DNA of 64,000 bases from Eledone cirrhosa (taxonomy: Eukaryota). The notes under the pieces are model-generated. The model searched no databases, was not told the origin of the DNA, and saw nothing but the letters and a program-made list of their open reading frames with translations. The stretch covers positions 131,440,001 through 131,504,000 of the forward strand of contig OZ024740.1 in the NCBI GenBank assembly GCA_964016885.1. The letters are read 5' to 3'. Position 1 is the first letter of the stretch; each line of letters starts with the position of its first letter. Shown here piece after piece: positions 4,469-57,330 of this stretch. A program made the translations under genes and the position numbers.

Positions 4469-4668
4469 NNNNNNNNNNNNNNNNNNNNNNNNNNNNNNNN
4501 NNNNNNNNNNNNNNNNNNNNNNNNNNNNNNNNNNNNNNNNNNNNNNNNNNNNNNNNNNNNNNNNNNNNNNNNNNNNNNNNNNNNNNNNNNNNNNNNNNNN
4601 NNNNNNNNNNNNNNNNNNNNNNNNNNNNNNNNNNNNNNNNNNNNNNNNNNNNNNNNNNNNNNNNNNNN
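4469..4668. other. Assembly gap (200 N)
   Basis: Run of 200 Ns between two different satellites. Confidence 0.99.
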
Positions 4669-7600: not shown

Positions 7601-10370
7601 GCATACTAGTATTTCAGTATACATATGTGGATGTACATTTTTAACTTAATTGTTTAAGCGTCAGTCATACAAAAGTGAGTTACAAACGAAGCGAAATTTA
7701 ATTTCGTTTCGTTATTTGTTTTTATCGTCTCCGTTGAACCGGTACGTACTCACGCTCTATGCAAATTGGTCTGCCCACTACTAATTTTCATAGAAAAGGC
7801 ATATAACGATATGTGCTTTTACGATTCTCTAGAAGGGCCGGAAGATAGGTAAATATTGCTGATGAGATGTAACAACATCGAAACTAGTTCAATGTTCCTT
7901 GTCTGGCTTTCTGGAGAATAGAGGAAAGGTGTTTCCTCAAAAACCAGTATGACTCTAAAAACCGGTTTGTCTGTGTGTTTACATACAGAATAGCTGGACA
8001 CTCACAGTAAAGTGACCAGTGAAAAACTCGTTACATCTACATATGTATACGTGTGTGTATTCATATGCATACTAGTATTTCAGTATACATATGTGGATGT
8101 ACATTTTTAACTTAATTGTTTAAGCGTCAGTCATACAAAAGTGAGTTACAAACGAAGCGAAATTTAATTTCCTTTCGTTATTTGTTTTTATCGTCTCCGT
8201 TGAACCGGTACGTACTCACGCTCTATGCAAATTGGTCTGCCCACTACTAATTTTCATAGAAAAGGCATATAACGATATGTGCTTTTACGATTCTCTAGAA
8301 GGGCCGGAAGATAGGTAAATATTGCTGATGAGATGTAACAACATCGAAACTAGTTCAATGTTCCTTGTCTGGCTTTCTGGAGAATAGAGGAAAGGTGTTT
8401 CCTCAAAAACCAGTATGACTCTAAAAACCGGTTTGTCTCTGTGTTTACATACAGAATAGCTGGACACTCACAGTAAAGTGACCAGTGAAAAACTCGGTAC
8501 ATCTACATATGTATACGTGTGTGTATTCATATGCATACTAGTATTTCAGTATACATATGTGGATGTACATTTTTAACTTAATTGTTTAAGCGTCAGTCAT
8601 ACAAAAGTGAGTTACAAACGAAGCGAAATTTAATTTCGTTTCGTTATTTGTTTTTATCGTCTCCGTTGAACCGGTACGTACTCACACTCTATGCAAATTA
8701 GTCTGCCCACTACTAATTTTCATAGAAAAAGCATATAACGATATGTGCTTTTACAATTCTCCAGAAAGGACGGGAGATAGGTAAATGTTGCTGATGAGTT
8801 GTAACAACAACGAAACTAGTTCAATATTCCTTGTCTGGCTTTCTGGAAAATAGAGGAAATTTGTTTCCTCAAAAACCAGTATGACTCTAAAAACCGGTTT
8901 GTCTGTGTGTTTACATACAGAATAGCTGGACACTCACAGTAAAGTGACCAGTGAAAAACTTGGTACATCTACATATGTATACGTGTGTGTATTCATATGC
9001 ATACTAGTATTTCAGTATACATATGTGGATGTACATTTTTCACTTAATTGTTTAAGCGTCAGTCATACAAAAGTGAGTTACAAACGAAACGAAATTTAAT
9101 CTCGGTTCGTTATTTGTTTTTATCGTCTCCGTTGAACCGGTACGTACTCACACTCTATGCAAATTAGTCTGCCCACTACTAATTTTCATAGAAAAAGCAT
9201 ATAACGATATGTGCTTTTACAATTCTCCAGAAAGGCCGGGAGATAGGTAAATATTGCTGATGAGTTGTAACAACAACGAAACTAGTTCAATATTCCTTGT
9301 CTGGCTTTCTGGAGAATAGAGGAAAGGTGTTTCCTCAAAAACCAGTATGACTCTAAAAACCGGTTTGTTTGTGTGTTTACATACAGAATAGACTAGTATT
9401 TCAGTATACATATGTGGATGTACATTTTTAACTTAATTGTTTAAGCGTCAGTCATACAAAAGTGAGTTACAAACGAAACGAAATTTAATCTCGTTTCGTT
9501 ATTTGTTTTTATCGTCTCCGTTGAACTGGTATGTACTCACACTCTATGCAAATTAGTCTGCCCACTACTAATTTTCATAGAAAAAACATATAACGATATG
9601 TGCTTTTACAATTCTCCAGAAAGGCCGGGAGATAGGTAAATGTTGCTGATGAGTTGTAACAACAACGAAACTAGTTCAATATTCCTTGTCTGGCTTTCTG
9701 GAAAATAGAGGAAAGGTGTTTCCTCAAAAACCAGTATGACTCTAAAAACCGGTTTGTCTGTGTGTTTATATACAGAATAGCTGGACACTCACAGTAAAGT
9801 GACCAGTGAAAAACTTGGTACATCTACATATGTATACGTGTGTGTATTCATATGCATACTAGTATTTCAGTATACATATGTGGATGTACATTTTTAACTT
9901 AATTGTTTAAGCGTCAGTCATACAAAAGTGAGTTACAAACGAAACGAAATTTAATCTCGTTTCGTTATTTGTTTTTATCGTCTCCGTTGAACCGGTACGT
10001 ACTCACACTCTATGCAAATTAGTCTGCCCACTACTAATTTTCATAGAAAAAGCATATAACGATATGTGCTTTTACAATTCTCCAGAAAGGCCGGGAGATA
10101 GGTAAATGTTGCTGATGAGTTGTAACAACAACGAAACTAGTTCAATATTCCTTGTCTGGCTTTCCGGAGAATAGAGGAAAGGTGTTTCCTCAAAAACTAG
10201 TATGACTCTAAAAACCGGTTTGTCTGTGTGTTTACATACAGAATAGCTGGACACTCACAGTAAAGTGACCAGTGAAAAACTTGGTACATCTACATATGTA
10301 TACGTGTGTGTATTCATATGCATACTAGTATTTCAGTATACATATGTGGATGTACATTTTTAACTTAATT
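4669..10370. repeat. 466-bp satellite, ~12 copies
   Basis: The same 60-aa pseudo-ORF recurs at 5024, 5490, 5956, 6422, 6888, 7819, 8285, 8751, 9217, 9606 and 10072. One unit has a 77-bp deletion near 9391. Confidence 0.97.
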
Positions 10371-10576
10371 ATATTATATATATATATTATATATATATAC
10401 ATATATTATATATATATATATTATATATATATATTATATATATATATATATATTATATATATATATATATATTATATATATATATATATTATATATATAT
10501 ATATATTATATATATATATATATTATATATATATATATATATTAGATATATATATATATTTTATATATATATATGT

Positions 10577-10608
<32 letters not shown>

Positions 10609-10702
10609 ATTATATATATATATATATTTTATATATATATATATATTATATATATATATATATATTATATATATATATTATATATATATATATTATATAT
10701 AT

Positions 10703-10733
<31 letters not shown>

Positions 10734-10820
10734 AATATATTATATGTATATAGATATATGTATATATATTGTATATATATATATATTATATGTATATATA
10801 TATATATTATATATATATAT

Positions 10821-10851
<31 letters not shown>

Positions 10852-11061
10852 ATATATATATATATATTATATATATTATATATATATTATATATATATAT
10901 ATTATATATATATATATTATATATATATATATTATATATATATTATATATATATATATATTATATATATATATATATTATATATATATATATTATATATA
11001 TATTATATATATATATATATATTATATATATATATTATATATATATATATTATATATATAT

Positions 11062-11093
<32 letters not shown>

Positions 11094-11125
11094 ATTATAT
11101 ATATATATATATTATATATATATTC

Positions 11126-11160
<35 letters not shown>

Positions 11161-11170
11161 ATATATATAA

Positions 11171-11217
<47 letters not shown>

Positions 11218-11319
11218 TATATATATATTATATATATATTATATATATATATATATTATATATATATTATATATATATATTATATATATATTATATATAT
11301 ATTATATATATATATTATA

Positions 11320-11362
<43 letters not shown>

Positions 11363-11442
11363 ATATTATATATATATATATATTATATATATATATATAT
11401 AATATATATATATATATATAATATATATATATAATATATATA

Positions 11443-11516
<74 letters not shown>

Positions 11517-11625
11517 ATATATAATATATATATATAATATATATATATATATTATATATATATATTATATATATATATATATAATATATATATATATATA
11601 TAATAATATATATATATATATAATA

Positions 11626-12091: not shown

Positions 12092-14747
12092 ATGAATGAA
12101 CTCACTACTCTGGCATCACTGAAGGACATCCCATTACCGGGTAAAAGAGAATACACCAGGAATTTCACTAAGAGTGCTGACTCCCTAATACGCAGGATGC
12201 GGTGGAGGGCTTACCACTCTGATAGAGGAAACCCCAAAATTTTAATAACCAAAAAATCATGGAGTGCCTCTTCAGATCAAGAATAACGCCCCCCCCCCCA
12301 CAACATACTATTGGAAAAGTTTCAGAACGAAATGATGGCATCATTTACATCATCAAATTTTCCGACCACCCATACCGGGGTTGAGAATACCTTAGACGAC
12401 TGGAAAATGGAATTACCGAGCGTAAGGAATCTACAGGAATACTCGTCCATGCTGACAAAACCAACAAGCTTTACAGCATGGACGTTCAACTTTACCATGA
12501 GCTAATCCTCAGGGAATTGAGAAAAAGCTACAAAAAAAAACGACCGAGGCTACACTGGAGCATATCAACATCAAGGCTTATGAGATCGTATCTGGTCTTG
12601 GTATAGATGATAGGACGGCCCCATACCAACCAAGGGAACCGAGGATTACCATTAAGGACTACAAAACAAACTTTGAGTCTAACCTCCCGGTCAGAATGAT
12701 AGCCCCCTCCCGGTCAGACATGGGGGTTATTAGCAAAAGCATTTTAGATAGGATCCTCCCCACACTTAAGAGTAAAAATGTTACAACTCTGATCCTGCAC
12801 CAGCCAGCTGCTGGACTGGTTTACAGTTTTACCTGACAAACATACCACCAGCTTCATACAACTAGACATCAACAATTACTACTCTTCTATCTCGCCTATA
12901 GTCCTGAACAAGACACTCATATTCGCGATGAATAGGACATACCTAACACGCGAGGAGGTCCGAAATATACACGCCGCCAGAAAGACTCTGATGCGATTCA
13001 GTGGTGACATATGGACCCGGAGTGACTGGCCAAATAATTTTGACATTACAATGGGCTCCAGTGACTCCGCGCAGCTAACGGACTTGGTTGGAATAAACAT
13101 ACTCTAGGAGATCAGGAGGGAAATACCCAACCTGGGTGGCGGGCTGTACCGAGACGACGCACTCTTCACCGTACTGGACGACAGCACCACAATGGTCGAA
13201 AATATGAAGAGGATAATTAGGCACTTCTTTAGCAAGGTAGGAATTAAGGTAGAGATGGAACCCAATAGAAAAGTAGTGACTGTCCTGGACACCACCCTCA
13301 ACCTTAACACCAAGCTACACCACCCATATCATAAACCCAATGAGGAGCTGGTGTATATCAACGCTGGGTCTAATCACCCTAGATCTATAGTTAAGGTCAC
13401 AGTTATGAGTGTCTCTGATAGGATCTCTAAATTATCGGCCAATAAAGAGATCTTCAATAGTAACGCTGATTACTATAACTCAGCGCTAGATAAGGCGTCC
13501 CACAGCGATAGGATCAGCTATAACCCTATGGGACATGATCGAGATGACCCAAGGGTACCCCGGACCAATACCATCAGGAGCATGAGTGGCCCACCTAATA
13601 CCTCGGTAACAAGTAGTAACACTCCCAGACCCTTATCCGTCACCACCCCCGGTAGAAGGTCCCGCCTACCCCATCGGTCTAATACCTACAACGCTGAATA
13701 CCACTGTGCTGCGGAGCATAGGCACCCCTGCACCGGCCCCACAACACGCCGAACCATAATTGAGCAAGGAGGCCGCACCTCGCAGGTTTATAATCCCACG
13801 GTGGGCCCATATAACCCTCATGATAGTGACCGCTCCGCACACCCAAGTGACACCAACCGACCTCGACCTGACCTGTGCACAACCACGCGATGGCCCACGG
13901 CGGACACCCAACAACCCCGAAAGAATAGGACGAGGTATGTCAAATGGTATAACCCTCCGTAATGGGTGGGTCTACGTACCTACCAGCCTGGCTAGAACAT
14001 TATTTAGAGTACTGGATAAATGATTCCCTAGGGCCCACAAGTAACATAAAATATTCAACAGGCCAACGGTGAAACTTTCCTACTCAACCACACGCTCCGT
14101 AGCCCAGCACATAGCTGGTATAAATAGGAATAGGCTCACTGCCTATAATACCACCGTAAACCCCGGAGCCACCGAACAGGACCAGCACGCGGGACGCAGC
14201 AGAACCCGGACAGGCAAAACTAGCACACCGGAACCCAACGACCTTGTGCTGATTGCGGAGGCTACACAGCCAACCCTGAGTGATGGTAACGACGCGGTAT
14301 ATGTGGTGGGGCTTAAGAAGTCATGTAATTGCAGAGACCCATCACTATGCCCCCCTTAGTAATGAATGTATGACGAAAAACCTGGTCTACAGATGCAAAA
14401 TGACAACGCCTAACTCGGAGCACCACTACATAGGATCCACAGCGACGAGCTTCAAAGATCGGTGGTATAACCATCGCTATTCCTTTAACAGAATACATAA
14501 GAGGAAATGTACGGCCCTTTCTGAATTGATCTGGAAGTTGAAACTTGAAAAGACCCCGCACTCTCTGGTCTGGTCGGTGGTTAGAAAGGCTCCTCCAGAC
14601 AGAGGCGGGTCTGGTATTTGCAACCTCTGGCTTAGAGAGACACTCGAGATTCTTCATGGCGGAACCAAGCTATTAAACAGAAATGTCGATTTATTCGGTG
14701 CCTGCAGACACCTAAGGACGGGAACTTTACTCAAGCTATATGGATAA
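12092..14747 (+). pseudogene. PLE reverse transcriptase + GIY-YIG endonuclease, frameshifted with stops
   Basis: Motifs across frames: SLKDIPLP..RMRWRA, ADKT, ITIKDYKTNF, QLDINNYYSSI, FDITMGS, GLYRDD, WYNPP, KIFNR.TVKLSYS, CNCR..CP, VYRC..YIGST..FKDRWYNH, TALSELIWKLK, LLNR..CRH. This matches the Naiad-type PLE consensus as I know it. Confidence 0.88.
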
Positions 14748-32203: not shown

Positions 32204-34350
<2,147 letters not shown>

Positions 34351-34819
34351 AAATAAATAAATAAATAAATATATAAATAAATACACAAGCACAATCATAA
34401 CAAACACATACAAACACACACTAGTAAACTAAGTTAGAATACAATAACCAATACTCAGTCACCCAAAAACTATACACACACGCAAACGCATGCGTAGAGA
34501 AGAAGACAAACACAAATAAATAAATAAACAGACTAAATAAAGATGGCGTAGGCATACAATAAAATAGGAGGAAACATAATAGCTCCACTGACGATATTAC
34601 AGAAGTGCAACGAAATAACTTTGTTAGACTATATATATGTGTTTGTGTCTAATTATATCTGTATTTTTGGCCGTTGGTCAATCAATGGTAAATATTGAGG
34701 ACCGAATAAATTAAATTAACCGATATAAAAGACACGGAAGCGAAAACCAACCAAACAGTGAGTGTGTTCTGTTATTAATTCTGGCAATATTATTACACAA
34801 ATATGACCCTCCCTAAGTA

Positions 34820-34895
<76 letters not shown>

Positions 34896-34978
34896 ATAAT
34901 AATAAATTTGAAGACTAAAATCCAAAGAGGACTCGATAACGATAAATATATATCAAATGTATAAGAACCGTAAAGAAA

Positions 34979-35780
34979 ATATTTATTAAAATAACATTAA
35001 AGTTTAAGCAAAGAATCGCTGCTTTCAGACTTAACGGGATCTTCTGAAACTAACAAATCAATCTGTAAACGCAGAAGTGGATATTTCAAGAAACGTTGCA
35101 ACCGGAGGAAGACAGGAAGACGATACTTTGGTTCGTGGAAACGTTCCCTGGCAAAGAACGGGAAAAAACGAATATAATACGTCATTAATTGAAGCGGTGA
35201 AAAACAATTACGCGCAAAGACAGAACCACGTTTATGGTATAAAAGAAGTCGTAGACTAATGTTCTCTTAGGTGGTTCATAGAGACGTTCTCTGGCAATAA
35301 ACGGAAAAAACGAAGATAATACGTCATATGTGAACCGTGGAGAACAATTGCACGCAGAGACAAAACCACGTAAATGGTATAGCTGAAGTCGTAGACTAAA
35401 TTCTAACTAGGAAACCGAATGATTCTCCGCTTCAGAGTTAAGAAAAAGTAAATAAAATACAATACAGAGGTAATTGATATTAAATAAATACATACACGCA
35501 TCCAAATACGTACATACATAAGCATACGCAAAAATATTAGTCTACGGCTTCCTTCATACCACAAACGTGGCTCCGTCCTTGCGCGCAACTGCTCTTCACC
35601 GTTCCCACCAATGACGCACTATATTCGCTCTTCCCCGCTCCTTGCCAGGGAACGCCTCCACGAATTAAAGCATCGCCCTCCTGTCCTCCTCCGGCTGCAA
35701 CGTTCATTGAAACATCCCCCTCCGTGTCTACAGATTGACCCTGCTAGTTTCAGAAGATCCTCTGTTATTTTAATAAATAT
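34979..35780. repeat. Inverted repeat (~225-bp arms 35037-35260 and 35536-35760) with an internal partial direct copy at 35283-35400
   Basis: Manual alignment of the arms. Outer ends atatttattaaaataac / gttattttaataaatat also pair. Confidence 0.92.
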
Positions 35781-36874
35781 ATATATATGTATATATATAA
35801 AGAAAAAGAGAAATAATCGAAAATGCAACTGGAGTCTTATTTATTTTTTTTTTAAATATATATATTTATTTGGCTCCTTTACTGGTTTCGCAGTTCTTCT
35901 GCTTTTCAAAAGGTGAGTTGAGATGGAGGGTCTGTGGTTTTTCTCACATCTGGTTGGTCTCTGAATGTTACTTGTTTTATATGGAAAAAGTGGCTCGAAA
36001 TGCCAGGTTTTTCGAGAAGTAATTTGATTGGTTTGTCAATAATTATAATAAATTTCGCGCCAGTTCGCGTTACAATAGTTCTTCAAACAAGGGGGGGGGG
36101 GTCGCAGGTAGAGAGAGAGAGAGAAAGAGAGAGTTAAATAGTCAGGGATCCCTGCGGCCTAGCTCCGGTCGTTTCGACTGGTAGTTACGAACTAATCCAC
36201 CAGTATTAGAACGCCGGGAATCTAACTGAATATATTAAAGGATTCAGTCCATATATAGGCATGCAGTTAAAGCAAAAAAAAAAAAAATGAAGAAATACCT
36301 TCATCACGGCGGAGGGATAAGTAGGCCAAACTTGCAAGGGGAAGGGGTAAGAAAGGAGACTGACCTGAGGATGCCAACCAGCCAGGCCTGCACGCACGGC
36401 ATTAAGAGAGATTATATACTATACAACTATGTTTATTCTGTAGAGACCGTAACTTCAATTCAAAGGGTTAAAAGTAAAAATAAAAACACAGAAAAAATAT
36501 AATTTTGTCATGTAAGAATCAACGAAGGTAGAGTGTAGTGTTTAAGTTAACTTTGCTGAATCTAAACATGGCTAACAAGACAACAATATATATTTTATTA
36601 CTAATTCAGTTCCTGGTAAAGAAATATATTTATCAATTACTCTGAGGCACAGGAAGGGCGCTTCATACATTAATTTACTTGTTTTTTTCTTTTATATTTA
36701 AATACCCCAAAAAATCCACCCTTAGTCTAGTATGGTGCCATAGCTATTTTTTCGGCCGGTTCCATAGAGTGAAAATATTCCGACTTTACCTAAATATATA
36801 TGTGTGTGTGTGTGTGTGTTTGTATGTATATATATATATATATATGTGTGTGGGTATGTATATGTATATATATG

Positions 36875-36906
<32 letters not shown>

Positions 36907-37298
36907 TATGTATGTGTGTGTGAGTGTGAGTGTGCGTGTATCAGTGTGCATATGTTTATGTGATTGTTTGCGTAAATAAGACCGTCATTATTTTACCTGG
37001 AAAGTAAACATGTATATAAATACCAAATCAATCTACGAACTCAAGGATATGTAAAGATTAAACGTATATTAAGCAACACTCCAAACCGGCCAAACAGCTC
37101 CTATTCAGTAGCAATTAACACTAGGAGTGTGACGGCACCAATCTGCAGATATCATATCACGTAGTTTCTGTAATATTAAGAAAGTATGATATTTTTTAAG
37201 AATGATTATTCTGCTTCTTCTTATATATGGAATGATATAAATATTTATAATACTACATCAGTTATCCTAACTTAAACATTATATGGTGATATTATATG

Positions 37299-40582: not shown

Positions 40583-40937
40583 ATATATGGGTAAAAGGAA
40601 AAGAAAATGCTGACAAATTGTTCCCAGTGAAAAACAGTTTAATTAGGAATAAGTAAAAATTAGTAAAAATATTGGTTAGTATTCAGTTTTTGTTTTAAGT
40701 TTTACCGGTGGAGCATTTCTAATGCTTTTCAAAAATAATGTTGAGATAGAGCGCCCGTCAAACATCACGGGAGCTCTATCTCAAAATTATTTTTGAAAAG
40801 CATTAGAAATGCGCAACCGGTAAATCTTAAAACCAAAACTGAATACTAACCAATACTTTTACTAATGTTTACTTATTCCTAATTAAACTATTTTTCACTG
40901 GGAACAATTTGTCAGCATTTTCTTTTCCTTTTACCAA

Positions 40938-40942
<5 letters not shown>
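40583..40942. mobile_element. ~360-bp near-perfect palindrome (MITE/fold-back-like, TA-flanked)
   Basis: ~178-bp arms (ggtaaaaggaaaagaaaatgctgac... / ...gtcagcattttcttttccttttacc) with a ~4-nt loop near 40762. Confidence 0.85.
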
Positions 40943-45256: not shown

Positions 45257-47460
45257 CCCAGATGGTGTGCAGGGGTATTGGATTAAAAATTTAACATCCC
45301 TCCACCCGAAGCTGACGGCAATGTTCAATGATTGCTTGGTGTCGGGTGAGGTGCCAGAGTGGTTGACAAAAGGTACCACAGTTCTGATAATGAAAGACCG
45401 AATCAAGGGTAATGATGTTACCAACTATAGACCTATCACATGTCTGTCCGTAATGTGGAAACTGTTGACGAGCATTGTGTCTGAGGAAATCTACCATCAC
45501 CTCCACACAAACAACTTGTTACGACGAACAGAAAGGATGCCGAAAGAAGTCACGTGGTACAAAGGACCAGTTACTTATTGATAAGATGGTAATGGGGAAT
45601 TGCAGGAGGAGACACACTGATCTTAACATGGGATGCATAGACTACAGAAAGGCATTTGACATGGTGCCTCATTCTTGGATCACCAAAAGCCTGGAGATCT
45701 TCAGGGTGTTAGATAACATCAGACAGTTGCTGGGCAGGAGTATGGGGTCCTGGGAGACGGAGTTGACATCAACTGGATTATCCTTGGGAAGCGTGAAGAT
45801 CAAGAGAAGTATCTTCCAGGGAGATAGCCTGTCCCCTCTGTTGTTTGTCCTTGCCCTGATGCCCTTGACCATTATGCTGCGAAAAGTGAGAGCAGGATAC
45901 AAGTTGGGAAACGGAGAGCTTACCATCAATCACCTCCTCTTCATGGACGATCTTAAGCTCTTCGGGAAAAGTGAGAAGGAGTTGGATGTGCTTGTTGACA
46001 CTGTCCGTATTTTTAGCAGTGATATATGTATGCAGTTTGGTATTAGTAAATATGGAGTCATTGTGATGAGGAGGGGTAGGTTGAGCAGAAGTAACGGGAT
46101 CCAGATACCAACAGGTGAGATGATAAAGGAAATTGACTCTGAGGAAAGATACAAGTATATGGGCGTTCTGGAGGCTGATGGCATAAAGAACAAAAAAATG
46201 AAGGAATTGTTAAGAACTGAATACATTCGGAGAGTAAGGAGCGTATTGAAGTCACATCTGAACAGCAGAAATGCCATAAGCGCAGTAAATTCCCGAGCTG
46301 TGTCTATTATTAGGTACAGTGCGGGAATTCTGAGATGGAATGTTGCTGAACAAAAAGAAATGGATAGGAAGACTAGGAAGCTATTGACTATCTACAACAT
46401 GTTCCAATAGGGGAGTGATGTCGATAGACTCTACCTAAGGAGATCTGAGGGTGGAAGAGGTCTTATCAGCATAGAGGACTGTGTTCAGATGGAGAAAAAC
46501 AACCTATACAAATACGTGACCTATATTAAGGAGCCAATGCTCAGAACTGTACTGAAGGAGGGGACAGTAGGCGAGGGGATGTCCAAGGAGGAAATAACAT
46601 CAAGGAGGAAGAGCAGCCTTAAGGGAAAATCCCTTCATAGTACCTTCTTTGAGAAAACTGAATTTAGAGATCCACAGACATGGAACTGGTTGAGAAGAGG
46701 AGACCTCAAAAAGGCTACAGAAGGAATGCTAATGGCTGCGCAGGAGCAGGCCCTCAAAACGAAGTGGTTGACGCACCATATTTACAAGGAGGAGACTAGC
46801 CCACTGTGCAGGATCTGTAGAGAGAGAGAGGAGACTGTGGCTCACATTGTGTCCGAGTGTAAACACCTAGCCCAGACCCACTATAAGGGCTGGTGACACG
46901 ATGTGATGGGCAGGGTGATCCTCTGGCACCTGTGCAAAGTAAACAATTTACCACATTCTGAGAAATGGTATGAGCATAGGCCAGAGGCGGTGATGGAGAA
47001 CAACCAGGTGAAGGTGCTGTGGGATTTTAGGATACAGACGGACAAAAAACTGGAACACAATAGACCTGACCTGGTGGTTGTGGACAAAGAAAAAAGATCG
47101 TGTCTGATTGTGGATGTGGCCTGCCCTTTCGACACGAGAGTGCAAGAAAAGGAGAGGGAGAAAATTAACCGATACCAGGACCTAAAGTGGGAGGTGAAAA
47201 GGATTTGGAACTGCCATGAAGTCTAAGTGATCCCGATTGTCATAGGCGCACTGGGGACTATCTCCAAAAGTTTCCAGGGATGGTTAAAGAAAATCGGCCC
47301 CTTCACGCTTTTTGGAACGCTTCAAAAGGCATGCTTGCTGGGAACAGCAAGAACCCTCCGATACGTCCTGAATATCTGAGGCTGCAGGTAGTGGCTTGAT
47401 ATTCATTCCAACGGACTTTCCAGTTAACCAACATCAATGACTAAGATTCAAGGAATAACA
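45255..47460 (+). mobile_element. 5'-truncated Dong/R4-clade non-LTR retrotransposon in a (TAA)n tract
   Basis: RT motifs [52 protein letters not shown]. Also GGRGL, CRIC..H..C and RPD..D..K..Y.DL. (TAA)n on both sides, the known Dong target. Few stops and frameshifts. Confidence 0.92.
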
Positions 47461-47497: not shown

Positions 47498-49130
47498 TTT
47501 CATTTATTAGCCACAAGGGCCGACATGTAGGGGACAATACAAAGACAGGGACAGTGGGGGTTTACAATAAGGTCGAGTAAAAATGCACAATGGCAAGACT
47601 AATTTAACAATGAAAATATAAAATATAAAATAAACTATGCAAAATGTAACAAAATAAATTCCCCGATAAGGGGTGGACGACCCTGGGGTATTCGGGTGCC
47701 CCACCAATCCTGAACCACCCTGCGCTTCTAGGGCACCCAGGAGAGCACCCCTCTCCTCAAGTTAGCTAGCCTATAGGCGCATGGTCAGAGTAGGCCCATT
47801 CACACGAGCCATTCTTGCCACATTCACCCACCTTTTAGCAAATGTACTGGGGGCCAGCACTTCTCTCTCCACCCTCAACCTCCTTTCCAGGTGAAACTTG
47901 AAGAAGTTGATGAGGGATTGGCCGAAGAGAAAAGTGCCTGTCTTTAGTCCTTTCAACCTGGTCCACCATATAATCTCTTTCGCAACTGCCACCAGACAGA
48001 GGAAAATGTCCTGCTCTTCCTGACCTAAGGAAGGTGGCGGCTCGATCTTCACTATGGACTCGGCCGATAACTGGATTCGTTCCACACACAACAGTAGGTG
48101 TTCGACATAACTCCACAAGTCAGTAATGCACGGACATTGGACAAGTGCGTGCAGAACGGTTTCGTCGTTCTGTGCGCATCTTGGGCAGGTCCGTCTGACA
48201 GCACTTCCGTGCCTGTAGAGTTTATCCCGAACCGGCAGTGCCCCCCGGTAGCACTGCCAAGCGAGGGATTTCTGGAAATTGTCCATCGTCCCCGGCTCAA
48301 AAGTCCTCCGGTACAGACTGGTCAGTTCGACTTCGTCGAGGCCCAAAGCTTCTCCGAGTGCGTCATCGCACTTGCCCACCACTAATCCTCTATAAAACTC
48401 GAGAGTGGAAGTTCCACTGATCGCATTGCCCGCTTGGTAGAGGGCAGTGAGTGCCTGGCAACATTCCAGGTGCCAGTCACCAAGTCTCGGTCTCTTCTTG
48501 ACCCAGGACTGCAGCTCAGTCAAAGAAATGAGCTGCGGAAAGGCCCGTCTGATAAACGGCGACCACACCTGTTCACCATTGAGGCAGAATATCTGGAGAT
48601 GTCGCAGCCTCAACGCATGTCTGCGCATCATTAGCCACGGCATGCCCAGCCCTCCGTGTAGAGGGTGCTGGCAGCAGATGGACCGCCTCACCAACGGAAC
48701 TTGTCCCCTCCACAAGAATTTGAAGAGCAGCCGTTCCAACTTGACGAGGCGCGGACGGAGGCAATGCACGACGGTTAGGCGGTAATAGATGACGGACGCG
48801 ATGTACGCATTCGCCACCTACGCGCGACCTTTCAGTGATAGCTTCCTCCCAGCCCATTTTTGGGTGAGACTGGCTACTCTGCTCGTTACCTCGTCCCAAT
48901 TCTTTTCCACCTGGAGGTCTGGTCCGAACCAAACCCCGAGCAACTTTACTGGTCCGTCCGTCCAGCGCCCCACGACGCTGTTGGACGGCATGGGCTTGCC
49001 TCTCCAGGTTCCGAGCTGCAAGCCCACCGACTTTTCCGGGTTAAGTTTGGCTCCTGTCAACCTTTCATATTCTTTCAATAAGGTGCCGACCACCTCGATT
49101 TCTGAGGTGTTCGACACCATCACGGTGATA
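47496..49130 (-). mobile_element. Tx1/L1-clade LINE, 3' part (RT C-terminus + zf-RVT)
   Basis: GAKLNPEKS, LLGVWF, W..RKLSLKGR, FKFLW..HGGLGMP, CPRC..ETVLHALVQC; (ATT)n tail. Confidence 0.9.
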
Positions 49131-49139
49131 ATAATAATA

Positions 49140-52100
49140 GTTTGTTTATTGGCCACAAGGCCTAACATGACTAAAGACATTACTGACAGCACAGCACGGT
49201 ACAAGACGATACAAAGTGGGTTTTGGCCGTGTAAACAGGTTATAACAAGATAGAAAAAAAAATTCTAACATCAAAAATTCCCCAAAAAGAGGGAGACATC
49301 CGATGGTCACTCGTGGTAAAAACCATACAAAAGACCACGGCCACCAATGTTTTATTTATTAACTCCAAGGGTTGACAAAATTATAATATTAAGAACAGCT
49401 TGATACAAACAGAGGATGTCTCAAAAAAAGAAACAAGTAAAAATCCCCCAGCAGAGGGAGACTTCCGAGGTTCGCTCGTGGAGACAGCCCAGAAAAAAGC
49501 AACGGTTACACTGACCGCTAAGGAAAGTGCCCCTTTTCAGTTTTCCTCATACGATGCTAAAGGCACATGCTCCGGGTTAGCCCATTCACAGGGGCAATTC
49601 TTTCTTCTCTCGACCACCTTTCCATAAACTGGCTGAAAGGCAGCAATACCCTTTCCACCCTAATTTTCCTTTTCAGGTGAAACCTGATAAAGTTAATGAA
49701 TGCGTCACCGTAGAGGAATGTACCCGTCTTCAACCCTTTCAGACTCGTCCACCATACGATATATTTTACCATGGCCACCAGGCAGATAAAAACTGCCTAT
49801 CCTACCGGCTAAAGGAAGGCGGCGTGGCAATCCACACGATGGACTCAGATGATAGCCTGATCCGTCATACACGCGACAGCAGGTGTTTGTGATAAACCCG
49901 CAAGACAAGTGCGTGCAAGACGGCACTTGCATTCCGACAGACGGCACTTGCATTCCTGTAGAGATTATTCCGAATTGGCAAAGCTCCTCGACAGCTCTGC
50001 CAGGCCAGGGCTTTCTGGAAGCTTTCCATGGGCCCCGGCCCGAAAGTTATCCCGAAGAGATTGGCTAGTTGTTTTTCGTCGACGCCTAGAGTTTCCCCAA
50101 GTACGTTGTCGCACTTTCCCTTCACTAATCCTCTATAGAACGCCAAAGTGGAGGTTCCACCGATCATTACTCGACTGGTCAAGGGTTGAGAGCGGCTGGA
50201 ACGTTCCAGTCTCCAAGCGCTCACTCTCGGTCTTCGCTTGACCCAGGACTGCAGCTCCGTCAATGGGACGAGCTGGGGAAAGACGCGTCTAGCAAACGGC
50301 GAACGCACCTGATCACCCTCGAGGAAGAGGTGGAGATGTCGTAGCCTGAGCTCGTGTCTGCGCATCATCAGCCACGGCATGCCCAGCCCTCCACGTAGAG
50401 GGTGTTGACAGCAGATGGACAGCCTGACGATCGGAGCGCGTCCCTTCCACAAAAAGCGAAAGAGCAAACGCTCCAGCTCAGTCAGGCGGGGCTTAGGACA
50501 AGGTACGACTGCCAGGCGGTAGTAGATGACGGACGCGATGTACGCATTACCCATCTTCGCTCGACCTGTCAGGGATAGGCTCCTCTCCGCCCATTTCTGG
50601 AGCTCCGAACCGAATCAGACCCCTAGCAATTTAACCGGTCTGTCCGTCCAGGGCCCGACGACGCTGTTGGACGACATGGACCTGCCTCTCCAGGTGCCGA
50701 GCTGCAGGCCCACTAACTTTTCCTGGTTGATTATTGCTCCTGTCACCGCTTCGTATTCTCTTAGTGTAGTGCCGATCGCCTCGATGTGTTTGGCGTTCGA
50801 CACCACTACGGTGACATCGTCCACATATGCTGACACAGATCTTCCGCATCCTAGATCGCGCGGGATCCACCTCAACGTCTCCAGTTCGTGCAGTAATGGC
50901 TCGAGAGTCAATACGTACAAGAGGGACGATTGGGGACATCCTTGGTAGACCGAGCGCATGATGTTGAACAGTTCCCTAAAGGTTCACTCTCACCACAGAG
51001 CAGATGTCGTTGTGCATGGCAGTGATCCATCCTCTGAAGACGGGCCCAGAGCGAGCCGCCCTCAGGACTGCCGGCAGATAACGATGGTCGACCCTATCGA
51101 AAGCTTTCGACTGATCTAAATTGATCAAGAACCCACCCGTGCCAAGTTCCCTAGCTACCCTCTCCACGAGGTATCGCATGAGGTGGAGGTTGTCTTGGAC
51201 GGATCTGTCGAGAATTTTGCATGTCTGCGCCTCTCCCACCAGACCATCAACGACAAGCGCCAACCTTTTGAACTCTTCAAAACTTGAACTCTGTGATTAG
51301 CAGAGTTATGGGCCTAAAATTATCTATGTTATCCCTCTTGTTCGGATCCTTTCTCATCAGCGCCACAGCTGGGAATTCTCCCGTTCTGTTGCCAATTGCC
51401 AAGTAGTCTGACCTCCGTACGCCTCCGAACAAGTCTAGCATCTGTACGTAAAGTTCATAGGGCAGACCATCCAAACCAGGCCATTTACCCCTTGTGCAGC
51501 CAGTCATTGCCTCCCGTACTTCAGCGGCTGTTATCGGCTTTTCGCAACACTCCGCCTCAGTGGCCGAGTGCCGCGTCAGTCCGTCGATGTAGACACTAAA
51601 GTCCATCCCTCGATCCGGCCCGCCGCTGCCCCCGAACAGCTGTGGGAAGTGTCGCTGAAAAGGTTCACACATTTTCCCGAGATCGAGTAGCATGCGCCCG
51701 TCGTGGTACACCAAAGACCGGATCGTGGATTTGTTGCCACGACGCGGCTCCGACATTCGGGCCCATTGAACGGCTTTCGTCCCCTCGTGTTTGAGAGCAC
51801 GCACCCTAGCTCTGACAACGCAGCCTTCGTTCTTTGCATTGAAGAATTGGTCAAGGGCCAATTTCGCCGCAAGAACGTCGGTCGCGATGCCTTTGCTAAG
51901 CGCCTCGTCTAATTTTCTAACTAATTCTCCCTCTGCTCTATTGTTCTCTCTTGCTAAAGCCTTACTAAACCTAATGGATTCTATTCTAATTGCTCTTTTC
52001 AGGGCAAACCACCAATTGTTGTTTACGATGGCCCCCGTCAAGGCCCACTTAACTAGTTCGCTAATCAGGTCTCTGTAGGCCTTGGGCGCTGGTAAGGACG

Positions 52101-55126: not shown

Positions 55127-57330
55127 GATTTCATTTATTAGCCACAAGGACCGACATGTAGGGGACAATACGAAGACAGGTACAGTGAGGGTTTAGAATA
55201 AGGTCGAGTAAAAGTGCACAATTGCAAGACTAATTTAACAATGGAGATATAAAAAAATAAAATAAACTATGCATAAATATAACAAAATAAATTCCCCAGG
55301 GGTGAGTCAGGTACCCCACTAATCCTGAAAAAACCCAGGGAGAGCACTCCTCTCCTCAAATTAGCTAGTCTATTTGCGCATGGTCAGAGTAGGCCCATTC
55401 ACACAGGCCATTCTCTCCAAATTCATCCACCTTTTAGCAAATGTATTGGGGGTCAGCACTTCTCTCTCAACCCTCACCTTCCTTTCCAGGTGAACCTTGC
55501 GGAAGTGAATGATGGATTGGACGAAGAGAAAAGTGTCTGCCTTCAGTCCTTTCAATCAGGTCCACCATATAACCTCTTCCGAAACGACCACCAGACAGAG
55601 GAATAATGCCTGCTCTTCCTGACCTAAGGAAGACGGCGGGTCGATCTTCTCTATGGAATCGGCCCACAGGCGGATCCGCTCCACACGCGACAGTAGCTGT
55701 TCGACATATCTCTCCAAGTCAGTAATGCACGGATGTTGGACAAGTGCGTCCAGAACGGTTTCGTCGCTCTGTGTGCATCTTGGGATGGTCCGTCTGACAG
55801 CACTTCCGTCCTTGTAGATTTCATCCCGAACTGGCAGTGCCCCCGGTAGCACTGCCAAGCGAGGCATTTCTGGAAATTTTCTCGCAAGTCCTCCGGTACA
55901 GACTCGTCAGTTCGACTTTGTCGAGGCCCAAAGCTTCTCCGAGTGCGTCATCGCACTCCCCCCCCCCTCACACAATAATCCTCTATAGAACTCGAGAGTA
56001 GAAGTGCCACTGATCACATTGCCCGCTTGGTAGAGGGCAGTCAGTGCCTGGAAACATTCCAGCTGCCTGTCACCCAGTCTCCGTCTCTTCTTGACCCAGG
56101 ACTGCAGCTCAGTCAAAGAAACGAGCTGCGGAAAGGCCCGTCTGATAAACGGCGACCACATTTGTTCACCGTTTAGGCAGAATATCTGGAGATGTCGCAG
56201 CCTCAGCGCATGGCTGCGCATCATTAGTCACAGCATCCCCAGCCCTCCGCGTAGAGGGTGCTGGCAGAAGTTGGACCGCCTCACCAACGGAACTTGCCCA
56301 TTCCAACTTGACGAGTCGCGGACGGGGCCAAAGCACGACGGTCAGGTAGTAGTAGATGACGCACGCGATGTACGCATTCACCACTTCCACACGACTTTTC
56401 AGTGATAGCTTCCTCCCAGCCAATTTTTGGGTGAGACCGGCTACTCTGCTCGTTACCTCGACCCAATTCTTTTCCACCTGGAGGTCTGGTCCGAACCAAA
56501 CCCCGAGCACTTTTACCTGTCGACGACGCTGCTGGACGGCATAAGTTCCGAGCTGCAAACCCACCGACTTTTCCAGGTTAAGTTTGGCTCCTGTCACTCT
56601 TTCATATTCCTTCAAAAAGGTACCGACCACCTCGATTTCTGAGGTGTCCGACACCATCACGGTGATGTCGTCTGCATAAGCCGACACCGCCTTTCCACGT
56701 CCCAGTTCGAGTGGGATGCCCTGCAACAGCTCCAGCTTCCGCAGTAAACGCTCGAGAGTCAATACGTACAGAAGAGAAGAGAGAGGGAACCCTTGGCGTA
56801 CCGATCGGGAGAGGCGAAATGGTTCCGAGAGGTGGCCATTAACCTTGACCTCCGAGTGTGTGCCGCTGTGCATTGCAGCGATCCTGCTTCTGAAGACAGG
56901 GCCGAAGCCAGCTGCTTTAAGGTCAAACTCTTGATACCGATGGGCAACCCTATCAAATGCTTTCGATTGATCTAAATTGATCAGTGCCCCACCGAAGCCA
57001 GGTTTTCACCCTAACCTCTCTATGATGTATCGCATGAGGTGGAGATTGTCGTGTATGGACCTGGCTCGGATTGCACAATTTTGCGCCTCCCCAACCAAAT
57101 CCTCGACGACAAGCGCCAAATCTCTTCGCTAACACCTTGGCCAAAATCTTAAACTCCGTGTTGAGCAGAGTTATGGGCCTGGAGTTGTCTAATGTATCCC
57201 TCTTGTTCTCGTCTTTCTTTATCAGCGTCAACACTCCCCTGCTCACAGAACTGAGAATGCTCCCATTCTGCTGCCAGTTGCAGTAGCGTGCTTCGAGGAG
57301 ATCGAAGAACAAGTCTGGCATATTTACGTA
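55127..57330 (-). mobile_element. 5'-truncated Tx1/L1-clade LINE (same family as 47496-49130)
   Basis: RPITLLNTEFKILAKVLA, SVRQGFPLS, SAYADDI. 3' end nearly identical to 47496ff. Confidence 0.9.

Follow-up and report, generated by a model that had tools for sequence, protein, structure and literature searches.

Introduction

Avian retroviruses (Rous-associated virus as well as avian leukosis virus) are hyperedited by ADAR, according to excerpts of PMC12925331, and processed pseudogene insertions made by L1 in cultured human cells carry ADAR edits in inverted Alus in 3 of 235 cases (PMC11702581, excerpts). DNA editing of the APOBEC3 type (G>A) is described for vertebrate LTR retrotransposons, 19 invertebrate genomes being negative in the excerpted results of PMC4866542. 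The motif of hyper-editing consists of a G that is depleted upstream and enriched downstream of the edited A (PMC4365171, excerpts).

Penelope-like elements of the Hydra clade are characterised in excerpts of PMC8557442 by RWK, by DKG changed to DKT, by CxCX5C, by CxxC and CxH beside a conserved E and N, and by insertion at (TA)n; a canonical hammerhead ribozyme is described there as common in the clade and not as a defining feature. In vitro, the Penelope protein cuts and extends both target strands with sense RNA as the template, and reverse transcription begins at either of two RNA sites between which the tail lies (PMC11167929, excerpts).

Here we analyse an inverted repeat in Eledone cirrhosa (assembly GCA_964016885.1, contig OZ024740.1, positions 131,440,001 to 131,504,000 of the forward strand; this whole stretch of 64,000 nucleotides is called the window, and coordinates refer to it unless a locus is named). 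A sequence-only reading had noticed that one arm of the repeat was A-to-G hypermutated and had proposed that a hyper-edited RNA was reverse-transcribed back into the genome.

Results

Identity and ends of the element

The repeat is, judged by its sequence, the 3′ end of a Hydra-clade Penelope-like retroelement, the clade being assigned on motifs. In longer copies the unit measures about 3.3 kb; partial tandems occur, and the ORF runs toward the fixed end. In broken natural copies the motifs follow each other in one orientation: the reverse transcriptase (RT) motifs GASDSAE and YRDDG (Y-x-DD), a linker, and then the Y-x-G-x-T, E and N region; the endonuclease is C-terminal to the RT, with the RT and then a GIY-YIG-type domain in a single ORF. 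RWR and DKT are present in all four long copies, as are CxCX5C and CxH, and CxxC-x2-E in three of the four. Among the atlas neighbours, PF26215 occurs in 27-56% of the members of the top three, and a further cluster has PF26215 with GIY-YIG. The Pfam scan of the ORF pieces of the element returned no significant match, and Rfam over 34000-37000 returned no hammerhead, only microsatellite-driven matches under gathering scores; inside three long copies no hammerhead core was found (two motif matches were both in flanks), and a variant core is possible. The family includes 5′ truncation, partial tandems (pseudo-LTR), an inverted 5′-truncated copy and an optional tail. A MITE, a foldback or a Naiad element was dropped as the identity given the ORF and its domain order.

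The fixed ends of the family are sense 3′ ends at (TA)n, from which the copies fade out inward, and almost all family ends adjoin (TA)n. There are two fixed end versions, 86 bases apart: the A-end, with a tail, and the B-end, without it. The 62 distinct head-to-head junctions, which have a microhomology of 1-6 bases, comprise 41 A+B, 3 A+A and 2 B+B pairs and 16 with another end; the predominance of A+B fits the cutting and extension of both strands from two RNA start sites described in the excerpts of PMC11167929. A 34-base motif of the 3′ region has 11,564 matches in the genome. About seven tandem copies of the 140-base internal 3′ unit of the element were seen at L002:457-1784, and a hammerhead-core-like motif at L061:40-130, in a flank outside the studied element, perhaps belongs to another Penelope-like or retrozyme family.

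Structure of the insertion in the window

The insertion lies between a left (TA)n microsatellite (34821..34892) and a right one (35777..35798). Its first arm, unedited, is on the minus strand at 34893..35537 (the coding strand, from the ORF orientation), and consists of the 3′ 650 bases of the 5′-truncated element, 94% identical to a long natural copy. This arm begins with the 86-base tail of the A-end (34893..34978, minus strand), recognised from the fixed end positions, the A+B junction pairs and PMC11167929 (excerpts), and we infer that RT began there for this insertion. It also contains two internal tandem units of about 140 bases each (35129..35404), found in other family copies and a normal part of the 3′ untranslated region. 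The arms meet head to head with a short microhomology at 35530..35537 (element positions 676|402). The second arm, at 35533..35760, is hyper-edited: alignment of the arms, short-read contigs and the family comparison place 35 A>G on the minus strand of the window, which is the antisense strand of the element. It is followed, after an internal deletion of about 40 bases, by an unedited B-type 3′ end (35761..35780, plus strand), recognised by comparison with the family ends. The arms of the sequence-only reading (35037-35260 and 35536-35760) were real but too short, since they span 34893-35537 and 35533-35780. The repeat beyond the right (TA)n had no A>G or T>C skew.

The ORF is on the strand opposite to the A>G changes. 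Given this ORF orientation, the A>G changes of the window are on the antisense strand, so that a plain edited mRNA is insufficient as an explanation.

Other repeats were seen in the window. That at 33000-34820, with long ORF pieces, reaches as far as the TA array into which the studied element inserted; another with long ORF pieces (13108-14747) has a weak GIY-YIG match at 14280-14744 (E 0.002, below the cut-off) and is probably, from that stretch, another Penelope-like family; 45469-46893, 47774-50983 and 56169-57005 are non-LTR retrotransposon fragments with RVT_1 and zf-RVT matches. The window has a 200-base assembly gap at 4469-4668.

The A>G changes are in the DNA

When 35037-35260 was aligned to 35536-35760 in reverse complement, 43 substitutions were counted, 35 of them A>G; the remainder were four G>A, two T>G, one G>T and one T>C, plus one 1-base indel, in agreement with the tally made earlier by hand (about 35 A>G, four G>A, four other changes and one indel). 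The excess of A>G over G>A between the arms was significant (p = 3e-7). By 5′ neighbour, the edited As were 22 of 42 after A, 7 of 14 after T, 2 of 12 after C and 4 of 21 after G (Fisher p = 0.04), the last count agreeing with the earlier remark that only about four changed As followed a G; scored against the family majority, 2 of 20 were edited after G (p = 0.003). Changes other than edits in this arm amounted to 7 among 221 conserved sites.

The polarity of the change is given by the family. The left arm is 96-98% identical to 39 other full-length places in the 3.0 Gb genome (40 scored of 1704 candidates), and the top non-self match of the G-rich arm is only 84% (40 scored of 1053 candidates). 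At the 35 edited sites the family base is A in 73-98%. The sequence-only reading had also noted that two other copies in the window mostly keep A: this holds for the copy at 934-1144, a relative of greater age (80% against the reference copy) in which 25 of the 32 alignable edited sites have A, and fails for 35283-35400, which was rejected as a separate family copy and is an internal tandem unit within the same left arm.

A base-calling or polishing artefact of the hairpin, or an old G-rich subfamily, would produce a G-rich arm without any editing; the arms are inverted repeats, and the sample of the short-read runs X1, X2 and X3 may not be independent of the assembly. In each of these three runs, which come from one sample, a short-read Logan contig spans 35489/35494-35763, with 1, 0 and 0 letters differing from the window at depths of 7.8, 4.6 and 9.1; with 0-1 differences at single-copy depth, the G-rich arm is not a long-read artefact, and the read check suggested in the sequence-only reading came out as G, not A. 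The RAD-seq run X16 gave no cover of the edited arm. A widespread subfamily is contradicted by the 84% best match, by the 4 edited against 11,564 unedited motif matches, by 34 other head-to-head pairs of the family without skew (maximum A>G minus G>A imbalance of 4, against 30 in the window) and by the edited arms having only part of their edits in common (26 common and 26 differing between the window and L033). For the window, artefact and subfamily are largely refuted, and we give them a negligible probability. The palindrome at 40583-40942, proposed earlier as a control without skew, behaved as such (10 differences in 176, one of them A/G). The A>G changes of the window arm sit in the DNA itself and are strand-coherent, rare and, in their context, ADAR-like.

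Further edited loci and the editing signature

Searches with the arm and with motifs gave five further edited loci with strand-coherent A>G, six in all with the window (about one edited arm per 3,000 copies). L032 and L033 were found by searching with the G-rich arm, and L074 by a further search. A motif built from three shared edits had five matches: the three already-known loci, L135, and a false positive, L134, an ordinary copy with two chance A>G that was excluded from all counts. A second antisense motif matched only the three already-known edited loci, so that few more edited arms are expected in that region. A sense-strand motif near the 3′ end had three matches, L135 (by construction), L136 and L138, and a sense-strand motif at element positions 380-411 had none. 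Both L136 and L138 consist of a solo 3′ end with its edits on the sense strand (4 of 19 and 9 of 35). Beside the sense-edited copy, L138:1700-2100 is GC-rich and looks by eye like intronless EGF-repeat coding sequence, perhaps a retrocopy. High-T>C matches considered as edited copies were a diverged related repeat with mixed changes, and the A>G-rich matches of window 10284-11552 were low-complexity TA/TG arrays.

The order of preference of ADAR for the 5′ neighbour is U, A, C, G. Pooling the independent antisense arms, four in number, gave 237 edited As among 599 conserved ones (L074 was excluded from the pooled context counts because it has the same edits as L033): 74 of 139 after T (53%), 125 of 246 after A (51%), 27 of 105 after C (26%) and 11 of 109 after G (10%; p 1.5e-13), so that the 5′-G depletion holds here as it does against the family majority in the window. 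By 3′ neighbour, the edited As were 44 of 85 before G (52%), 66 of 129 before C (51%), 89 of 259 before A (34%) and 38 of 126 before T (30%); the 3′-G enrichment taken alone is weak (p 0.04 on three arms). The pooled neighbour pattern matches the hyper-editing motif in the excerpts of PMC4365171. The edited arms have A>G at 38.9% of conserved As, against a background of 0.9%, and every other change at no more than 2.3%; ordinary copies have a background A>G of 0.7-1.1% in every neighbour context. Isolated AA became AG 34 times, GA 4 times and GG 10 times in the edited arms, and in the sense-edited pieces pooled (L136, L138 and the fragment of L135) none of the 11 As after G was edited. An excess of A>C/A>T in the edited arms (11 of 610, p 0.006), considered as misread inosine, was not used, C>A being raised too. 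The changes of the sense strand are T>C or A>G, not the G>A of APOBEC-type editing.

Evidence for editing at the RNA level

The pair L135 (L152:5643-6987) and L143 (L150:7306-8507) is the best one for the mechanism. On one strand, L135 reads: unedited A-end arm, junction, sense fragment, tail, (TA)n, antisense arm, junction, and unedited sense arm to the B-end. The sense fragment has 4 of 17 A>G and the tail 0 of 20 (p 6e-5), and the antisense arm has 34 A>G, so both orientations of the element are edited on one physical strand. Two independent 1-in-3,000 events side by side are implausible; taken as a single event, L135 has the usual outer ends, one A and one B. Its inner junction recurs in L143, a palindrome without edits, and both loci have 26 variants in common in the loop region, some of them private, against 10 and 6 unshared. 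The predicted fold of the L143 transcript has a long stem over the positions edited in L135 and leaves the tail outside; the edits of L135 are limited to this predicted stem. The edited arm of L135 had no contig cover in the runs X1-X3 and X6, an absence that proves nothing. As far as the stem/loop boundary, the L143 sense arm at approximately L150:8190-8270 (element positions 240-331) has alleles that belong to another subfamily, the sole such case among 25 copies of its subfamily; this haplotype break could be a template switch or gene conversion. A template switch in L135, once considered, was withdrawn, because the break belongs to L143 and may be gene conversion.

A single complex insertion of 10 kb (L103:5895 to L104:6083) has L033 at one end and L074 at the other. 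The two loci have outer unedited A- and B-arms, one junction and a common private variant, and their edited arms have 91 edits in common against 3 discordant A/G sites. These common edits and the single junction imply that the template already held both when copying began from the two start sites. Between L033 and L074 lie other repeats and TA arrays, about 8 kb in all, either carried along or inserted later. Taken over all loci, editing is found in both orientations of the element, and at each locus it can be read as A>G on a single inferred strand of RNA.

These loci bear on the possibility that ADAR deaminated the dA of new cDNA in the RNA:DNA hybrid, in the manner of APOBEC3, each arm being its own cDNA and only one being hit. 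The asymmetry between arms would follow directly; if the arms are independent first-strand cDNAs, the A>G changes of the window, L032, L033 and L135 are on the cDNA strand; and in vitro, dA-C mismatches in hybrids are sites at which ADARs edit DNA (PMC12925331, excerpts). The sense-strand edits of L136 and L138 have the opposite polarity, which, with the upstream piece of L135, lowers this idea. The common edits of L033 and L074 also speak against it, and the 39% of As edited far exceed the mismatch-site activity described. As independent cDNAs, moreover, L033 and L135 would be B+B pairs (2 of 62 junctions), but as read-through copies they have ordinary outer A+B ends. We regard cDNA deamination as very unlikely.

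The unedited partner arm

In the part of the window partner arm that is complementary to the edited arm, none of 67 sites has a reciprocal change (A>G on the sense strand), where about 27 would be expected; the caveat raised by the sequence-only reading, that the partner shows no reciprocal change, is thus real. The counts are 0 of 58 at L032, 0 of 53 at both L033 and L074, and 1 of 51 at L135. The hairpin of the window as a whole was consequently not itself the molecule that was edited and copied. At L033 the edits reach position 1000 and the local partner ends at 337, leaving about 660 bases beyond; this overshoot and the lack of reciprocal edits indicate that the edited arm had paired with a strand other than the copied sense arm.

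HIV RT hypermutagenesis is the model for dG placed opposite template U, and an error-prone RT, or low dATP, acting in this way would yield A>G on the strand made as cDNA. Internal deletions, which are typical of RT jumps, are present in the edited arms of the window and of L032. The strong 5′-G avoidance and the asymmetry of AA toward AG disagree with such errors, as do the partner arms (0/67, 0/58, 0/53 and 1/51, without A>G excess), the opposite polarity at three loci and the limits set to the edits by the stem, and we consider this origin highly improbable.

How the partner arm stayed unedited can be approached from L135, which holds the same sense stretch twice, edited once and unedited once. 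The free sense 3′ end that the RT would need could come from an additional sense copy within the transcript, such as a full-length element with an inverted 5′ arm (seen at L060) would give, or from a second RNA that the RT then leaves by a switch; one of these two routes is required by L135. No extra upstream sense copy was found at L143, nor any parent having one. Editing follows the predicted double strand at L135/L143, where it is limited to the stem, and the tails are spared (L032 has 2 A>G in the tail against about 40 in the paired part); for the arms of the window, L032 and L033, confinement to double-stranded RNA is putative.

Parents were sought for the edited loci. The junction of the window is present, unedited, at L107, with the same difference between arms at one polymorphic site, in a family where the arms of a pair normally agree (283 of 300 polymorphic sites). 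L107 was nevertheless set aside as the parent, its short arm having no rare variant in common with the edited arm and a microhomology hot spot being possible. L060, a full-length element with an inverted 5′ arm, was rejected as the parent of L032, its junction being 2 bases off and the tested arms having no common rare variants. No unedited locus with the junction of L033 or the exact junction of L032 was found among 40 scored candidates each.

A separate antisense RNA has to be weighed against these data, the RT having left the sense RNA at a microhomology to continue on an antisense transcript that was edited, with the junction formed afresh, or antisense RNA being the normal template. All four long edited arms are antisense, the junctions have 1-6 bases of microhomology, L033 and L032 lack a parent among the candidates scored, and an antisense template has been proposed for Penelope elements (PMC3846280, excerpts). 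On the other side, the L135 junction exists unedited at L143 with common private variants, L033 and L074 were copied twice from one junction-bearing template, sense-edited ends exist, and the copies are fixed at a sense 3′ end and truncated 5′, sense RNA being the template in vitro (PMC11167929, excerpts). This is the strongest of the alternatives considered, and still an unlikely one.

Discussion

ADAR editing of RNA followed by reverse transcription, in some form, is very probably the origin of the edited arms. Hyper-edited RNA written into the genome, as the sequence-only reading had it, is supported and survives all three refutations which that reading had named, with what it lacked: the identity of the element, the antisense location of the edits and their occurrence in both orientations. 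As for the route, we think it likely that an ADAR-edited transcript of an earlier head-to-head insertion was copied by the RT of the element. Such an insertion would be transcribed as 5′-(UA)n-antisense arm-junction-sense arm-tail-3′ (the minus strand of the window), and the antisense arm of this read-through RNA would be double-stranded and hyper-edited by ADAR. The RT would start at one of its two start sites on a single-stranded, unedited sense 3′ end, from a further sense copy in the same RNA or from a second RNA with a template switch; it would then read through the junction and the inosine-rich arm, placing C opposite I, before rejoining the target at (TA)n. We propose no function for the resulting copy, which is dead and non-coding. 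The ordinary divergence on top of the edits suggests that the edited copies have been inherited.

More tentatively, and with slightly less than even confidence, germ-line ADAR editing may be a heritable route of hypermutation in this animal: the RT of Penelope-like elements would copy duplex RNA rich in inosine, whichever its polarity, into chromosomes, head-to-head palindromes would move in their entirety as read-through transcripts with template jumps, and edits of host transcripts that these elements carry could be fixed likewise. If so, the movement of palindromes with template jumps would be an unrecognised step of the Penelope-like cycle, recorded strand by strand by the edits.

No report of inherited ADAR-hyperedited invertebrate retrotransposon copies was found in the literature searched, which lies mostly outside subscription journals, and excerpts of PMC8096273, PMC7186786, PMC2873906 and PMC5974252, covered by the same search, hold no inherited ADAR-hyperedited retrotransposon copies. 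Inherited ADAR write-back in an invertebrate retrotransposon would be a new form of a process known from retroviruses and from L1 in cultured cells. Only about 1 in 3,000 copies records such an event, and the products are dead and non-coding; they nonetheless provide direct genomic evidence that normally transient ADAR edits can enter DNA and persist in an invertebrate genome, in contrast to the APOBEC-oriented LTR screen, which saw no editing in invertebrates in the excerpts of PMC4866542. As the edits mark which strand was RNA, they are a natural tracer for how Penelope-like elements build tandem and inverted structures and for whether antisense sequence serves as template, and a simple genome screen makes this testable in any species.

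Compared with the known systems, the avian retroviruses resemble these loci in A-to-G clusters that lie in a region of inverted repeats, affect near half of the As and became fixed through reverse transcription (PMC12925331, excerpts); the copies described here differ in coming from a Penelope-like element, which is not a virus, at six loci of a genome assembly, with long antisense-arm edits and an unedited partner. The L1 insertions likewise have edited duplex RNA written into chromosomal DNA by the RT of a retrotransposon, and also switch template between RNAs, but they are somatic, induced and made from host mRNA (PMC11702581, excerpts), whereas ours are natural, come from the read-through RNA of the element itself on the reading favoured above, and in several cases carry a few percent of ordinary divergence. 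With APOBEC3-type editing the common features are strand-coherent hypermutated retroelement copies fixed in genomes and an enzyme motif; that editing is G>A, arises by deamination of cDNA and affects LTR elements in the excerpts of PMC4866542, whereas here it is A>G of both polarities, putatively at the RNA level, in a Penelope-like element. The element itself agrees with the Hydra-clade and PAc elements, as far as these are described in excerpts of PMC8557442 and PMC11167929, in its C-terminal endonuclease order, motifs, (TA)n targets, partial tandems, inverted 5′-truncated copy and optional tail; it differs in a tail of 86 bases instead of 30-40 and in having no canonical hammerhead core, and editing marks and read-through palindrome mobility figure only here and not in those excerpts. 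Finally, compared with the antisense template proposed in PMC3846280 (excerpts), the antisense sequence copied here is best explained as part of a sense-primed read-through RNA.
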